DNA of 64,000 nt from a phage, in the sequence record PZ172995.1; one strand, 5' to 3'. The translations under genes were made by a program, and so were the position numbers. Of this stretch, positions 11,485 through 16,654 are shown in pieces. Within the stretch, counting starts at the first letter, position 1. Each line of letters opens with the position of its first letter. Below the pieces are notes generated by a model. That model saw only the letters and a list, made by a program, of their open reading frames with translations. It made no database searches and was not told where the DNA came from.

Positions 11485-12660
11485 ATGGCAGTAGGTGAAA
11501 TTCAAATTAGTGCCTTGCCACAAGCGGCCTTACCAATTGATTTGAGTGATATCTTCCATCTTAAGCAAGGTGTTGAGGATAAAAGATGTACGCTTGAACA
11601 GTTGTTAGCACCTCACGCATCTTTGAGGAATAATCCTCATGGTGTAACTAAATCACAAGTAGGTCTTGATAATGTTATTAACTCTCTTCAATTAGTTGCA
11701 GCTAATAACTTGTCAGATATTGTAAATGTTGCTGAGGCAAGAGCAAATCTACAAATTATGTCGTCAGAGGAAGTGAATAACTTAATTCAGCAACATATTG
11801 ACGACAAAAGTAACCCACACAACACAACGAAAGCACAGGTTGGTTTAAGTAATGTTCAGAACTGGACAACATCCAACCTGTACAATGAAGATGCTGATAA
11901 ATATGCTACCGCGAGAGCAGTGAATAATCTATACAAAGCTATCCAAGCATCATATCCAGTGGGGACTATTCATCTGTCTGTTAACTCTGCTAACCCATCC
12001 ACTTACTTGCTTTGTGGAGGTACTTGGGAGTTGGTTTCTAAAGGTAGGGCGCTTGTTGGTTATGATACAGAAGCTAGACCTGTTGGTTCAACGTTCGGTT
12101 CTCAGACTGTAGCATTAACAAATAATAATTTACCAGCACACACCCACTCTATCTATTTAACAGGTGGTGGTCACACACACTCTGCAAGCGTATCTATCTC
12201 TAGTTTTGATTATGGTTCAAAAAGTACATCAACTTTTGATTACGGTACAAAAACGACTAATAGTGCTGGTGCTCACACTCACACGTTTAGCGGCACGACA
12301 AGTAATGATGGTAACCATAACCATAGAGTACCACTGAGAGGTAATGATAGAAGTGGGGGGGATGCTATTACTGCATCTGCTTATGCTGGGGTTAATAATA
12401 ATACGTATACTGATTTAGCAGGTGCTCACACCCATAGCTTCTCAGGCACAACTGCATCATCTGGTGCTCATAACCATACTGTTGCAATTGGTGCTCATAG
12501 CCACACTGTTAATATTGGTTCACACAGTCATACGGGCACTGTTACTGTCTCTAGCTCTGAACATACACACTCAGGAACATCTGGTTCTGTTGGTGGTGGT
12601 CAAGCTTTCAGTGTTGAGCAGCCATCTTTTGTCGTGTATGTATGGCAGAGAACAGCTTAA
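11485..12660 (+). CDS. tail fiber protein with C-terminal HxH-repeat domain
   Basis: 391 aa; C-terminal third has repeated H-T-H / H-N-H / H-S-H triplets (AHTHSFSGTT, GAHNHTVAIGAHSHTVNIGSHSHTG) and ends ...VWQRTA; RBS AGGAG. Confidence 0.65.
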   Translation: MAVGEIQISALPQAALPIDLSDIFHLKQGVEDKRCTLEQLLAPHASLRNNPHGVTKSQVGLDNVINSLQLVAANNLSDIVNVAEARANLQIMSSEEVNNLIQQHIDDKSNPHNTTKAQVGLSNVQNWTTSNLYNEDADKYATARAVNNLYKAIQASYPVGTIHLSVNSANPSTYLLCGGTWELVSKGRALVGYDTEARPVGSTFGSQTVALTNNNLPAHTHSIYLTGGGHTHSASVSISSFDYGSKSTSTFDYGTKTTNSAGAHTHTFSGTTSNDGNHNHRVPLRGNDRSGGDAITASAYAGVNNNTYTDLAGAHTHSFSGTTASSGAHNHTVAIGAHSHTVNIGSHSHTGTVTVSSSEHTHSGTSGSVGGGQAFSVEQPSFVVYVWQRTA

Positions 12661-12669
12661 TTTCTTTAC

Positions 12670-12690
12670 AGGGGCTTTGTAGCCCCTTTT
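12670..12690 (+). terminator. rho-independent terminator (weak U-tract)
   Basis: AGGGGCT-TTGT-AGCCCCT followed by TTTT between the two fiber genes. Confidence 0.45.
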
Positions 12691-12706
12691 AAGAGGAAAA
12701 TTCATA

Positions 12707-15073
12707 ATGGCAGATTACAAATTGAGTCAGTTAAACTCAATCGACACAATTCGTTCAGAAGACCTATTGCATATCAGAGTTAAGAAAAGACCTGAAATGT
12801 TGGGTGACGAAGACCGTAGAATGACCTATCAAGACTTCTTAGCTTCCTTCAAACTAGAAAGGTTTGTTCAGATTGCTGGGAGTAATATGACTGGGGATTT
12901 AGGTATTGTCAAGCTACTTTACGGTGGAAAGATTGTATTTGACCCTACAGGCTCTTCTGAGATTACTATTGGGGATGTTTTAAAGACTTTTAAACTTAAT
13001 GCAAGTGGCCTTAAACTCACTATTGCAGACTCTTCAAGGTCAGCAACTGTTTATCACACTCTGAATAAGCCAAGCCCTAATGAGCTTGGTATGAGAACTA
13101 ATGAAGAGAATGATGCAAGATATGCAAGGCTTGCTGCAAATAACATCTTTACATCCCAACAGACTATCCAAGCAAATGGTGAAGGTATTAGGTTAAAAAA
13201 CTCTTCTGAGAACTCACCGTTGTATATCAGAGGTCAGGATAGTGCTGGTGAGAATAGATGGTATATCGGTAATGGTTCAGGGGGTGATAATGTTACTATC
13301 CGCAACCACAAGACAGACTGTGAAGTTATTCTATCTAGTGTCGTGGCTATCAATAAAACATTAAGCATCACTGGTCAAGTCAAACCTTCAGATTTCTCTA
13401 ACTTAGATGCTAGATACTTCACTCAGACAGTTGCTAATCAGAGATTTGCACAGTTAGCTGGTAATAACACTTTTACAGGTGCTAATACATTTAGGACTAT
13501 GAGTATTATCTCAAATGCTGCTGCTATCACACTACAATGTGCATCAGCAAATGAATCCCTGTATCTACTTGCAAAAGATTATCAAGGTGGTAACTTATGG
13601 TATGTTGGTAAAGGTAGCTCAGGTGATGGTGTAACTATCTACAACTATACCACTAACACCTCTTTGGTCTTAGATGCTGCTGGAGTATCAGCAAATAAAA
13701 ATGTCAGAATCACTGGTCAAGTTCAACCTTCTGATTGGGCTAATATTGACTCTAGATACATTCCAGCAGGAACTTTGAGTAACCTTGCTAAACTGAGTGA
13801 TGTGAATACTTTTAGGTCTGCGCAAGTTATTAAACAGAATGGTCCAGTGTTGCAGCTAAGGAATACTATTCAGGACAGGGAGCTATATATCTCTGCTCAT
13901 AATGCTGATGATGTTAGAAAGTGGTACATCGGTAACGGGGATGCTAACCCAGCAAGGCTTATTATCCACAACGACAGAACTGCAACTACGATTTATATGC
14001 AAGACGATTTCTTGCTGAATAAAACAGTTAGAATCACTGGTCAAGTCCAACCTTCAGATTTCTCTAACTTAGATGCTAGATATTATACGCAATCTGTAGC
14101 AAACTCTAGGTACATGCTTGCTGTCTCTACTGGTTCTGGTACAGAGGCTGGTGATGGTGATGGTATTGCTTGGAATGCTAGGACTGGTCTGTATAATGTT
14201 ACAGGGAAATCTGGTTGTTCAACACAGCTAGTTTATCAAATGTTTATCGGTGGTGGCTCAACACCAACTGCACAGTTGAAGTTTAGCTACAGGAATGGTG
14301 GTGTCTGGTATAGGACAGCAAGAGATGGCTATGGATTTGAGAATAGCTGGGCTAAAATCTATACAGACCAAGATAAGCCAACCCCTTCAGATATCGGTGC
14401 ATACACTAAAGCTGAAACTGACCAGAAGATTGCAGAAGCAATTAGTGACTCTACAGACCTGAATAAAATCTATCCAGTAGGTATTGTAACGTGGTTTAAC
14501 AGTAATGTTAACCCTAATACAGCACTTCCTGGTCTAACTTGGACGTACCTGAATAATGGTGTTGGCAGAACTATTAGGATTGCAGCAGCAAATGGTTCAG
14601 ATGTTGCTACAACTGGTGGTTCAGACTCTGTAACGTTATCTGTTGGTAACTTACCTTCACACACACATAGTTTCTCTGCTACCACTTCATCATTTGATTA
14701 TGGTACTAAGACTTCTAGCACAACTGGTAACCATAACCACAACAGAGGTAACATGGAAATTTCTGGTGTGGTTGGTTGGTTCAGAAGTGATAACAGTGCA
14801 TTCTACACTGCGAGCGGTGCGTTTCAGATGGGTAGTTCTCAGGCTTCACATGGCTTCACAGGCTCTAACTTCACTTACGGTGCTGCTGCTGATTTCCACG
14901 CGTCAAGAACTTGGACAGGTGTAACCAACACAACTGGCAACCACGCGCACACTGTTGGTATTGGTGCTCACAGCCACACAGTTAGCGGTAACACAGGTGG
15001 TACTGGTTCTGGTTCAGCATTTAGCGTCACTAACCAGTTCTACAAGTTAATGGCTTGGGTAAGGACTGCTTAA
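12707..15073 (+). CDS. long tail fiber protein with internal tandem repeats and HxH C-terminal domain
   Basis: 788 aa; three ~100-aa repeats each ending ITGQV(K/Q)PSD(F/W)(S/A)N(L/I)D(A/S)RY; C-terminus has HxH repeats and ends ...AWVRTA, homologous to C-terminus of 11485..12660. Confidence 0.65.
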   Translation: MADYKLSQLNSIDTIRSEDLLHIRVKKRPEMLGDEDRRMTYQDFLASFKLERFVQIAGSNMTGDLGIVKLLYGGKIVFDPTGSSEITIGDVLKTFKLNASGLKLTIADSSRSATVYHTLNKPSPNELGMRTNEENDARYARLAANNIFTSQQTIQANGEGIRLKNSSENSPLYIRGQDSAGENRWYIGNGSGGDNVTIRNHKTDCEVILSSVVAINKTLSITGQVKPSDFSNLDARYFTQTVANQRFAQLAGNNTFTGANTFRTMSIISNAAAITLQCASANESLYLLAKDYQGGNLWYVGKGSSGDGVTIYNYTTNTSLVLDAAGVSANKNVRITGQVQPSDWANIDSRYIPAGTLSNLAKLSDVNTFRSAQVIKQNGPVLQLRNTIQDRELYISAHNADDVRKWYIGNGDANPARLIIHNDRTATTIYMQDDFLLNKTVRITGQVQPSDFSNLDARYYTQSVANSRYMLAVSTGSGTEAGDGDGIAWNARTGLYNVTGKSGCSTQLVYQMFIGGGSTPTAQLKFSYRNGGVWYRTARDGYGFENSWAKIYTDQDKPTPSDIGAYTKAETDQKIAEAISDSTDLNKIYPVGIVTWFNSNVNPNTALPGLTWTYLNNGVGRTIRIAAANGSDVATTGGSDSVTLSVGNLPSHTHSFSATTSSFDYGTKTSSTTGNHNHNRGNMEISGVVGWFRSDNSAFYTASGAFQMGSSQASHGFTGSNFTYGAAADFHASRTWTGVTNTTGNHAHTVGIGAHSHTVSGNTGGTGSGSAFSVTNQFYKLMAWVRTA
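13113..14110 (+). repeat. in-frame tandem triplication (~290-340 nt units) inside tail fiber gene
   Basis: Protein-level repeats NSPLYIRGQ...WYIGNG...ITGQVKPSDFSNLDARY / ESLYLLAK...WYVGKG...ITGQVQPSDWANIDSRY / RELYISAH...WYIGNG...ITGQVQPSDFSNLDARY; coordinates approximate. Confidence 0.6.
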
Positions 15074-15080
15074 TCCCTTG

Positions 15081-15109
15081 TTGACTGATTGTTAAGATGG
15101 TGTTAATAT
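15081..15109 (+). promoter_or_regulatory. sigma70-like promoter candidate (TTGACT-N17-TAATAT)
   Basis: Hexamers at 15081-15086 and 15104-15109, 44 nt upstream of ATG 15153. Confidence 0.4.
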
Positions 15110-15152
15110 TCTTTATGGGTATTCTCACCATCTTGGCTGATGAGGTGATTAA

Positions 15153-15350
15153 ATGCCTACAATCCTAGCAATTCTTCTAAAAAATCTAGGTAGCTTCTTC
15201 TGGAAACTCATTTTATCCCTTCTAAGTGAATACATGATTGAGAAAGTGTTCTTTAAGCTTGCAAGATATCTTGCTAGTAAGACAGACACACCTATTGATG
15301 ATGAGTTCGTAGATAACTTAGAAAAAGCTTTTAAGGGGGAGAATAAATGA
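15153..15350 (+). CDS. small membrane protein (holin-like size)
   Basis: 65 aa, hydrophobic N-terminal segment (PTILAILLKNLGSFFWKLILSLL), charged C-terminus; RBS GGTGA. Confidence 0.35.
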   Translation: MPTILAILLKNLGSFFWKLILSLLSEYMIEKVFFKLARYLASKTDTPIDDEFVDNLEKAFKGENK

Positions 15351-15718
15351 AGTGGCTAGAGGAAGCTTTTAAAAATAATATTGGTGCAATTGTAGTTGGT
15401 ATTTTTAGTGTTATTGGGATGTATACCACGATGCAAGTTTCAAGTGGTAAACAAGAAGTGTCTATCACAACAAAATTACAGCAGCTAGATAATTATTCCA
15501 AAAGTAATTATTCAGCTATTCGTGATTTACAGTCTGATATGAGGCTGCTTCAGCTAGGGATGGAGAACCAGAAAGTCCAGTTAGAGAATGTTAAGGGTGA
15601 GAACGCAAAACTTACTAAGACTCTTGATAAATTCTCTGATAGTGTGAACAATCTGGCTCAATCAGTATCAGCCCTCCAAGCTATTACTGAAAAGAACACA
15701 AAGAATACTGAAAAGTAA
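15347..15718 (+). CDS. membrane-anchored coiled-coil protein
   Basis: 123 aa, N-terminal TM-like segment (IGAIVVGIFSVIGMY) then heptad-like Q/L/K-rich region; overlaps upstream stop. Confidence 0.4.
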   Translation: MKWLEEAFKNNIGAIVVGIFSVIGMYTTMQVSSGKQEVSITTKLQQLDNYSKSNYSAIRDLQSDMRLLQLGMENQKVQLENVKGENAKLTKTLDKFSDSVNNLAQSVSALQAITEKNTKNTEK

Positions 15719-15723
15719 AGTTT

Positions 15724-15752
15724 AAGGCTCCTTTTTACGGGAGCCTTTTTTG
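15724..15752. terminator. bidirectional rho-independent terminator
   Basis: GGCTCC-TTTTTAC-GGAGCC stem flanked by A-rich 5' and TTTTTTG 3'; between convergent genes ending 15718 (+) and 15755 (-). Confidence 0.7.
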
Positions 15753-15754
15753 TT

Positions 15755-16654
15755 TTATTTACCTACTGATAAAGGTGCTTCAATCTTTCCTGCATGTTGG
15801 TAGTTGTTAATTCCACCGATAAAGTCACTTGCAGTGAGATGTTTTAGGTCACTTAAAGTATTAAGTTGTAAACCAATCTCAAAAGTAGGTGCATGAAACT
15901 CTTCATTGTTCATCAGTTCATAAACCTGCTTCATATGATTCTGATAAATCTGAGTATCTCCAAAGACACCTATCAAGTACCGTGGAGTGTATCCAGTCAT
16001 CTTACAAAGAACTTCCAGAATAAAACCGTAAGATGCAATATTGAATGGAAGTCCTAAAAAGGTGTCTACTGAACGCTGATACCATTGTAAGTCAACTTCA
16101 CCCTCGTTAGTAATATAAATCTGAAACAGAACATGACAAGGTGCTAGAGCCATTGAGTTTGCTGCAATATCTGCTGCATTCCAAGCATTAACAAGCATGT
16201 AACGGTCTGTGATATCACCCTTCATCTTTGTTACTAAGGTCTCTAACTGGTCTACAACACAACCGTTATGACCTTCAAAGTTTCTCCACTGAACTCCGTA
16301 GATTCTTCCACCTGCATCCTCTAACCAATCTTGTTCAGAAGAATAATTAGAGCTTAACCAGCGTTTAAAATCATCTGACCAGATAGTCCAACGTTCCCCA
16401 TCATTTTCACCCCAAGTGCGGTAACGGAGTTCACCAAGCTTATTCTCACCGTTCAGGAACCATAAAGCTTCCCCAATAACTTGCCGTGTAAACACCTGTT
16501 TAGATGTTAAGAGCGGGAAACCAGTTCGCATATCAAAACGAAACTGAGGTGGAGCAAATGCAGAGATAACATCTCCAGTTCGTGTAGTACGCAGTTCGCC
16601 AACTGATAAAACATGGTTCAGGATATTTTTGTAACTTGAATCTGCTTGTGACAT
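15755..16654 (-). CDS. thyA: thymidylate synthase
   Basis: 299 aa with hallmark motifs: RTGDVISAF (R-TG-G region), ALAPCHVLFQ (active-site PCH), WYQRSVDTFLGLPFNIASY. Confidence 0.9.
   Translation of the reverse strand: MSQADSSYKNILNHVLSVGELRTTRTGDVISAFAPPQFRFDMRTGFPLLTSKQVFTRQVIGEALWFLNGENKLGELRYRTWGENDGERWTIWSDDFKRWLSSNYSSEQDWLEDAGGRIYGVQWRNFEGHNGCVVDQLETLVTKMKGDITDRYMLVNAWNAADIAANSMALAPCHVLFQIYITNEGEVDLQWYQRSVDTFLGLPFNIASYGFILEVLCKMTGYTPRYLIGVFGDTQIYQNHMKQVYELMNNEEFHAPTFEIGLQLNTLSDLKHLTASDFIGGINNYQHAGKIEAPLSVGK

Follow-up and report, generated by a model that had tools for sequence, protein, structure and literature searches.

Three pyramid-type units in the long tail fibre of a Felixounavirus phage, with probable cassette exchange and rare copy-number change at conserved linkers

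Introduction

The closest described counterparts of the gene analysed here are two long tail fibres (LTFs) known from cryo-electron microscopy (cryo-EM). Bas63 gp27 is a 630-Å long tail fibre with repeated beta domains (PMC12609058), and in Shigella phage Sf14 it is gp53 that forms the "longer" fibre, likewise of 630 Å, in which some domains are T7 gp17 pyramid-like and others Mu-like (PMC11821841). Cryo-EM of Bas63 and Sf14 established the trimeric state of the long fibre, and these two phages supply the only structural data for a 630-Å fibre on the baseplate LTF platform (PMC12609058, PMC11821841). Here we analyse the same protein in a 64,000-nucleotide (nt) stretch of phage DNA (record PZ172995.1, hereafter the window), where the LTF gene occupies 12707–15073 on the + strand and encodes 788 amino acids (aa). 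Our subject is a domain of about 100 aa that occurs three times in tandem in this fibre. All fibre features described below lie on the same strand and are given in window coordinates.

Repeats 2–5 of Bas63 gp27 are unexpectedly variable, and the Bas63 authors offer three explanations: mutational tolerance, host recognition, and targeting by a defence system (PMC12609058). Recombination is mentioned in neither the Bas63 nor the Sf14 paper, and neither describes repeat-number variation among recognised species (PMC12609058, PMC11821841), whereas we find a two-unit allele, four- and five-unit relatives and probable exchange at the linkers between units. Pfam and the two cryo-EM papers of 2025, on Sf14 and Bas63, already cover the triplicated architecture, which other members of the subfamily have as well. 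What is new is the proposed cassette mechanism, the swaps between positions and genera, and the natural variants with two, four and five units.

Three other systems frame the comparison. The pyramid domain of T7 gp17 (371–447; PDB 4A0T/4A0U; PF20744) is related to the LTF units by profile homology and is their best structural match. T7 has one such domain at the distal end of its fibre, whereas the LTF has three in tandem, internally, followed by a tip-like domain, a collar and an HxH needle. The order of pyramid then tip is shared, in that PF12604 follows the units in the LTF and the tip domain follows the pyramid in T7 gp17. The T4 gp34 rod (PDB 4UXG/5NXH; PF21446) likewise consists of repeated trimeric beta domains with short helical turns between them, but there is no sequence match either way: the LTF lacks Gp34_trimer and gp34 lacks PF20744. 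The plasticity of T-even gp37 and gp38 follows the same logic as proposed here, with short conserved motifs between hypervariable segments acting as recombination points. Tetart et al. reportedly described, in 1996 and 1998, His-box-flanked duplications and swaps in T-even gp37, and host-range effects of fibre plasticity have been demonstrated experimentally in T4. In T-even gp38, the hypervariable segments lie between glycine-rich motifs (PMC3157838). These are proteins of another family with variation at another position: short loops at the adhesin tip in T-even phages, as against whole rod domains of about 100 residues in the LTF.

Results

Three units in the fibre. The LTF contains three tandem in-frame units of 98, 114 and 108 aa (aa 136–455, nt 13112–14071), with D(A/S)RY anchors at aa 136, 234, 348 and 456. 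Unit 1 (U1) spans 13112–13405 (aa 136–233) and is of the pyramid type, with a hypervariable core at aa 141–222 (nt 13127–13372). Unit 2 (U2) spans 13406–13747 (aa 234–347), with its core at aa 258–338 (nt 13478–13720) and a 5-residue insertion. Unit 3 (U3) spans 13748–14071 (aa 348–455), with its core at aa 361–444 (nt 13787–14038); this is the unit absent from the natural two-unit alleles described below. By BLASTP, U1 and U2 are 45% identical (E 7.5e-31), U1 and U3 44% (E 3.9e-31), and U2 and U3 36% (E 5.6e-19); hhalign of the per-unit alignments gives a probability of 100% (E 1.7e-41, 3.3e-53 and 4e-38). The units were compared separately because self-BLASTP of the whole protein returned the identity match alone. 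Tandem Repeats Finder reported no array of unit period, since whole units are too diverged.

A first-pass annotation of the window, made from the sequence alone, had called an in-frame tandem triplication of a ~100-aa domain in a long tail fiber gene, and BLASTP, hhalign and three matches to PF20744 bear it out. The motif it gave, LY..WY(I/V)G(N/K)G..ITGQV(K/Q)PSD(F/W)(S/A)N(L/I)D(A/S)RY, is present in all three units. The start it gave, 13113, falls one base inside codon 136. What had been taken for a partial fourth start (aa 456–470, DARYYTQSVANSRY) is merely the conserved linker found after every unit. The N-terminal region (aa 40–139) and the PF12604 domain were both considered as diverged copies and rejected: hhalign matches only the linker motif of about 10 residues in the former and finds nothing beyond the short linker motif in the latter. 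Because neither the N-terminal 135 residues nor the domain after U3 is homologous to the units beyond this motif, we count exactly three.

Domain identity. Pfam PF20744 matches the LTF in three stretches (215.3 bits against a gathering cut-off of 21.7, E 8.5e-65). Searched against solved structures, a profile of the three units finds T7 gp17 367–438 (7boz, E 5.6e-8; 4a0u, 6.6e-7; 4a0t, 1.1e-6), the stretch named the "pyramid" domain in the literature (PMC11821841). PF20744 itself spans T7 gp17 371–464 (model positions 1–95 of 95, E 1.6e-40), and the tip domain of T7 gp17 (466–542) matches PF12604. T4 gp37 matches neither PF20744 nor PF12604, and neither does T4 gp34. Judged by these matches, the Pfam names 'gp37_trimer' (PF20744) and 'gp37_C' (PF12604) are misnomers, both families being T7 gp17 domains, and annotation from these names (window 13112–14455) will wrongly imply homology to T4 gp37. 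Kinship of the repeated domain to T4 gp37 was accordingly rejected: T4 gp37 has no PF20744 match, and only the C-terminal needle of the LTF is gp37-like. A literature search for PF20744 found nothing.

An AlphaFold2 (AF2) monomer model of aa 120–480, with a mean predicted local distance difference test (pLDDT) score of 73, contains three beta modules of five strands each at block-mean pLDDT of about 75–95; the linkers are of low confidence and contain short helices. The best Foldseek matches of this model in the PDB are to T7 gp17 371–553 (4a0u/4a0t; E 4e-4, probability 1.0). Matches to gp34 (4uxg and 5nxh) are marginal, with E 0.14–0.23 and template modelling (TM) scores of at most 0.18, and there is no match to Pfam PF21446 (Gp34_trimer). 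Each unit would probably adopt a trimeric interdigitated fold.

Conserved linkers and variable cores. Self-comparison, which the first-pass annotation had named as a check, finds periodicity among the units in protein and in the unit ends at the DNA level. The unit ends are the sole alike stretches of DNA: three copies of an 86-nt block (64–85% identity) lie at 13352, 13694 and 14018, which puts them 342 and 324 nt apart. The longest exact matches are 34 nt between U1 and U3, 17 nt between U2 and U3 and 14 nt between U1 and U2, where codon shuffling gives a maximum of 12. The 34-nt direct repeat lies at the end of U1 (13383–13416) and again at the end of U3 (14049–14082). The two copies of the 17-nt repeat AGAATCACTGGTCAAGT (13706–13722 and 14030–14046) flank the crossover of the natural 324-nt deletion described below.

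Variation among relatives was profiled on 110 full-length homologues, in which the cores were assigned to types by clustering at 80% identity. Entropy is 1.1–1.6 bits in the cores (aa 141–220, 261–340 and 361–440), 0.1–0.5 bits in the linkers (aa 221–260, 341–360 and 441–460) and at most 0.3 in the N-terminal 140 residues. The invariant residues form a hydrophobic and glycine framework. Conserved linker 1 (13373–13477, aa 223–257, ..SITGQVKPSDFSNLDARYFTQTVANQRFAQLAGNNTF.., 0.13–0.34 bits) is the site of a mosaic breakpoint. Conserved linker 2 (13721–13786, aa 339–360, ..RITGQVQPSDWANIDSRYIPAGTLSNLAKL.., 0.25 bits) forms the left side of the natural deletion junction and conserved linker 3 (14039–14116, aa 445–470) the right side.

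Exchange of cores. Between phages, nucleotide identity jumps sharply at aa 140/141 and 220/221. Phage Shy is 100% identical to the window in nearly all 30-nt windows over aa 231–460 (two are at 97%) and only 33–60% identical over aa 141–220. In phage Tf, most of the U1 core (aa 161–220) is at 100% identity but the U3 core is at 40–60%; EC6 differs mainly in the U2 core. There are 14 core types at position 1, 15 at position 2 and 9 at position 3, in 60 combinations among the 110 proteins, and quartets in which two types at each of two positions occur in all four pairings number 33 for U1/U2, 26 for U2/U3 and 24 for U1/U3. Because the mosaics are sharp and the cores pass this four-gamete comparison in so many combinations, we attribute core variability to cassette exchange by recombination at the linkers and not to drift in place.

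Cores also move between positions 1 and 3 and between genera. The U1 core of the window shares about 80% identity with cores that other fibres carry at position 3, against 31–44% with its own U3, depending on the measure. In the cultured Felixounavirus LF110P1 its type is the position-3 core (85% nt, 74% aa), and Citrobacter phage Moogle has it at position 1 (83% nt); unit 3 of LF110P1 is 92% identical in protein to unit 1 of LTH02. Position-2 cores were never seen exchanged with other positions (best cross-position identity at most 53%). Swaps between positions 1 and 3, and not 2, fit the linkers, since it is after U1 and U3 that the 34-nt match is found, together with an excess of synonymous codon identities (17/24, where 10.7 would be expected; p about 0.007). 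We considered gene conversion between paralogous cores and rejected it, the excess being confined to the U1/U3 linker. Fourteen phage records contain the window U1 type, and the hosts they list belong to Escherichia, Shigella, Salmonella and Citrobacter; ten, all from Escherichia, contain the U3 type, and HMD-P10 alone carries both.

The first-pass annotation had also proposed the repeats as recombination substrates. This agrees with inter-phage breakpoints at the linkers and with the junction of the 324-nt deletion in the linker block; the effective substrates would be the short conserved linkers. The features of the T-even system are found here as well: variable segments between motifs, breakpoints at the motifs, independent assortment, and deletion and duplication junctions located in motifs. 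Recombination at conserved motifs in T-even gp37/gp38 is the closest mechanistic precedent (PMC3157838, which cites the two papers of Tetart et al.).

Copy-number variants. A hidden Markov model (HMM) built from the three units was scored on the window fibre and its 120 best homologues (121 proteins). By this count, exactly three units are present in 119/121. The other two, P0041 and P0074 (680 aa, metagenomic Felixounavirus), are two-unit fibres lacking exactly 108 aa, an in-register deletion of 324 nt. Their junction is of U2 type upstream (…GTCAGAATCACTGGTCAAGTT) and U3 type downstream (CAACCTTCAGATTTC…), reading ...GGTCAAGTT/CAACCTTCAGATTTC... with the slash at the join; this places the crossover inside the block AGAATCACTGGTCAAGT[T/C]CAACCTTC common to the ends of U2 and U3. 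One of these genes lies on a syntenic 37-kb Felixounavirus contig from SRR33526939 and the other on a contig from ERZ27280814; the assemblies are independent, and the genes differ from each other, notably in the tip. Assembly collapse is an unlikely origin for the two-unit allele because the identical tracts are shorter than assembly k-mers.

More distant relatives were sought among 1.84 billion representative proteins, of which 187 contain the unit, each matched in one to several stretches. There are four units in P0122 (901 aa) and five in P0121 (1015 aa), both built on the same MADYKL...MAWVRTA framework. Neither has a close cultured relative (best matches at most 44% and 49% identical, respectively). 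A later internal duplication is suggested for P0121, where the identity between units 3 and 5 is 61% and linkers of U2/U3 type stand on either side of the extra units. Repeat number thus differs among relatives, with three units in nearly all close homologues, two in P0041 and P0074, and four or five in distant ones. It alters fibre length, as the first-pass annotation had supposed (680 aa with two units, 901 aa with four, 1015 aa with five), and each unit presumably adds a fixed length to the fibre.

Other parts of the fibre. The N-terminal baseplate-binding region and first beta domain (12707–13111, aa 1–135) have entropy of 0.04–0.30 bits and are not homologous to the units; the baseplate-binding role is taken from Bas63 (PMC12609058). 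After the units comes a T7 gp17 tip-like, Mu fibre S-like domain (PF12604; 14129–14455, aa 475–583; Pfam E 6.2e-21), a variable cassette whose match to the fibre protein S' of phage Mu (8ju3) has E 1e-21. About 10 of the 120 closest homologues (P0049, P0053, P0059, P0091, P0101, P0114 and others) are variants of 846–849 aa. In these (checked on P0049 and P0059) the conserved flanks enclose an unrelated module in place of the PF12604 domain, longer than it by about 60 aa, so that this distal domain too is a swappable cassette. The C-terminal part (14462–15070, aa 586–788) is a collar and HxH needle receptor-binding tip of the T4 gp37-tip type, as also described for the Bas63 fibre (PMC12609058). 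It matches the T4 gp37 tip (2xgf) at E 5e-4 with the HxH motifs aligned, and a Gp10_C match in this region falls below the Pfam cut-off. Entropy is near zero in the collar (aa 581–660), and aa 661–760 are variable.

Orthology and neighbourhood. The window phage is a Felixounavirus (a Felix O1-like coliphage). Its 788-aa open reading frame (ORF) matches PHROG 4277 over the full length (positions 1–780 of 780), and the gene has matches in 221 phage records, nearly all of Felixounavirus type on Escherichia and Salmonella. The tail fibre gene of Escherichia phage HMD-P10 is 99.3% identical to it in nucleotides. The LTF is the orthologue of Sf14 gp53 and Bas63 gp27. Sf14 gp53, from the genus Mooglevirus, is collinear with it (58% identity over 788 of 792 aa, 8 gaps) and also has three PF20744 stretches. 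Gene order in the window is a 391-aa fibre, the LTF, a 65-aa ORF and a holin-like 123-aa ORF, then convergent thymidylate synthase and dihydrofolate reductase genes, in agreement with Sf14 gp52–gp57 and with L001. Collinearity and gene order alike support the earlier call of a long tail fibre gene. Near-identical fibres (P0018, P0020, P0049, P0087 and P0096) are deposited at NCBI as Escherichia coli or Shigella flexneri on contigs of 17–88 kb; Felixounavirus genomes occur in 'bacterial' assemblies, by contamination or in a carrier state. In the EC6 record (L006, JX560968), 301–2671, the long fibre is annotated as two overlapping coding sequences, 301–1926 and 1892–2671, which points to a frameshift, whether through a sequencing error or because the gene is really disrupted.

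The shorter tail fibre gene upstream (11485–12660, 391 aa) is the orthologue of Sf14 gp52 and Bas63 gp26 and lacks the repeated units. Its 27-nt tandem repeats, especially at 12451–12519, encode GAH(S/N)HTV (HxH) needle motifs. Blocks of 37–57 nt, 70–86% identical, are common to this gene and the LTF needle region (14948–14984) and are possible sites for exchange between the two. Downstream of the LTF gene comes the 65-aa ORF (15153–15350), whose last 4 nt are shared with the holin-like ORF beyond it; a Pfam scan of it gave no match. At the same position, an ORF of 64–65 aa is present in pEP20, Tf, CL1, Sf14 and L001, where the precomputed Pfam assignment is PF26925 (Phage_PM2_Gpl), and Shy, EC6 and bumzen have one of 37–38 aa instead. 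A strong terminator-like hairpin (15724–15747, nine pairs and then a T-run) directly follows the holin-like ORF, at the boundary between the late genes of the + strand and the convergently oriented thymidylate synthase gene. A promoter and terminator scan of 12500–15800 found nothing bearing on the repeat. ARAGORN found no tRNA genes in the whole 64-kb window. About 26 are clustered in the related phage Sf14, and the corresponding region evidently falls outside the window.

Discussion

We consider it quite likely, on comparative grounds, that the LTF carries three pyramid-type trimeric domains whose cores are exchanged as cassettes, and whose copies are occasionally gained or lost, by recombination at the linkers. 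The three units would follow one another as trimeric beta domains of 'pyramid' type, like that of T7 gp17, in the middle rod of the Felixounavirus long fibre. Each would consist of a core of about 80 residues, hypervariable and under purifying selection, and a linker of 20–35 residues (ITGQVQPSD(F/W)xN(L/I)D(A/S)RY...). The linker would correspond to the 'alpha-helix and turn' joint of the Bas63 structure and presumably holds the three chains in register. Linkers would be the only DNA stretches alike enough, between units and between phages, for homologous recombination, and their being the only competent stretches would lead both to exchange of core cassettes and to gain or loss of whole units. 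Co-infecting relatives would then swap individual cores from one phage to another, across genera and also between positions 1 and 3, and rare unequal crossover between linkers would remove or add whole units in frame, giving two, three, four or five units. Either an exchange or a change of copy number may affect adsorption or host range.

Several points qualify this explanation or weigh against it. The evidence for it is comparative throughout, and usable homology within the gene is just 14–34 nt. The triplication is ancient and nearly fixed, neither recent nor unstable, and copy-number change is rare: the Bas63 paper describes no repeat-number variation among Felixounavirus species recognised by ICTV, the international virus taxonomy committee (PMC12609058), the two-unit form was absent from the GenBank phage collection searched for cultured phages and present on metagenome contigs only, and the same junction on both of those contigs may reflect a single event. 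On the structural side, the fold evidence is a monomer AF2 model of a trimeric and probably interdigitated protein, and its TM-scores against 4a0u reach just 0.22 and 0.39, which the elongated three-domain form of the monomer accounts for. The Bas63 authors compare the rod domains to the T4 gp34 rod and not to T7 gp17 (PMC12609058). Finally, ratios of nonsynonymous to synonymous substitution (dN/dS) in the cores are well below 1 and give no sign of positive selection, so that an adaptive cause of core diversity would be tentative.

The alternatives concern either the age of the repeat or the reason why its cores vary. The view that the triplication is a recent, unstable duplication or an assembly artefact, with copy number fluctuating in populations of this phage, draws on the 34-nt exact repeat between the ends of U1 and U3 and on the existence of one natural deletion allele. 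Yet the units are just 36–45% identical in protein, too diverged for assembly collapse or expansion, and three units are kept in 119/121 homologues, including the Mooglevirus fibres of Sf14 and Moogle. Paralogous cores show no excess of synonymous codon identity; together with three units across Felixounavirus and Mooglevirus, this places the triplication before the split of the two genera, and we regard a recent origin as extremely unlikely. Drift in place, the first hypothesis of the Bas63 authors, holds that the cores vary merely because beta-rich rod domains tolerate missense substitutions. It fits the hydrophobic and glycine framework of invariant residues and the relaxed constraint on the cores, which is 2–5 times weaker than in the N-terminus and collar: within-type dN/dS has a median of 0.17, against 0.07 in the former and 0.03 in the latter (rough Nei-Gojobori estimates on about 80 codons, with dS up to 0.8). 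It cannot produce 100% nucleotide identity on one side of a linker and 33–60% on the other in one phage pair, and it leaves unexplained both the four combinations of core types at two positions and the presence of one core type at different positions and in different genera. The mosaic pattern largely refutes pure in-place drift, to which we give very little credence. The cores are better described as constrained folded domains that have somewhat more latitude for change than other parts of the protein, with the large differences between types representing old alleles kept circulating and reshuffled.

Why such alleles should be maintained is a separate matter, and a role of the cores in functional specificity, whether host recognition or defence evasion, is no better than a tentative proposal. 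The failure of pure in-place drift fits passive spacers that recombination drags along as well as it fits specificity modules. Under the second hypothesis of the Bas63 authors, which is compatible with the architecture proposed here, the cores would be additional lateral host-recognition modules, putatively binding lipopolysaccharide or O-antigen sugars along the fibre, and their exchange a host-range mechanism. Core types are discrete, deeply diverged, drawn from a shared pool and independently reassorted; the homologous T7 domain adjoins the receptor-binding tip; the window U3 type occurs only in Escherichia phages; and the Sf14 authors propose that receptor contacts may lie proximal to the tip (PMC11821841). 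Set against this, the window U1 type is not genus-specific, occurring in Escherichia, Shigella, Salmonella and Citrobacter phages, the same core type works at position 1 or 3, and within-type dN/dS (0.03–0.47) gives no signal of positive selection on the cores. Host recognition stands as a possible but doubtful account. The third hypothesis, that an anti-phage defence system or other host factor targets the cores and that their exchange allows escape from recognition, draws on the same shared, reassorted and deeply diverged alleles and on core diversity not tied to host genus. With dN/dS well below 1, and no defence system sensing such fibre rods identified here, we judge it improbable. Bas63 repeats 2–5, to which these hypotheses were addressed, most plausibly correspond to U1–U3 and the PF12604 domain here, going by the variability profile.

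The repeat in itself is textbook tail-fibre modularity. Cassette exchange at linkers would add an account of the variability of the rod domains that the Bas63 paper left open, as reassortment of old, constrained alleles and not local drift, and repeat number is not strictly fixed. The linkers are natural in-frame splice points that could serve in the construction of chimeric or length-altered Felixounavirus fibres, and the natural variants with two, four and five units are ready tests of how fibre length or core identity affects adsorption. More speculatively, the rod of the Ounavirinae fibre could be a combinatorial cassette system of two to five domains, in which the linkers are dedicated recombination joints and the cores are specificity modules for glycan contact or evasion of host factors. 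If this is true, reassortment between phages, positions and genera, together with changes of copy number, would tune host range.

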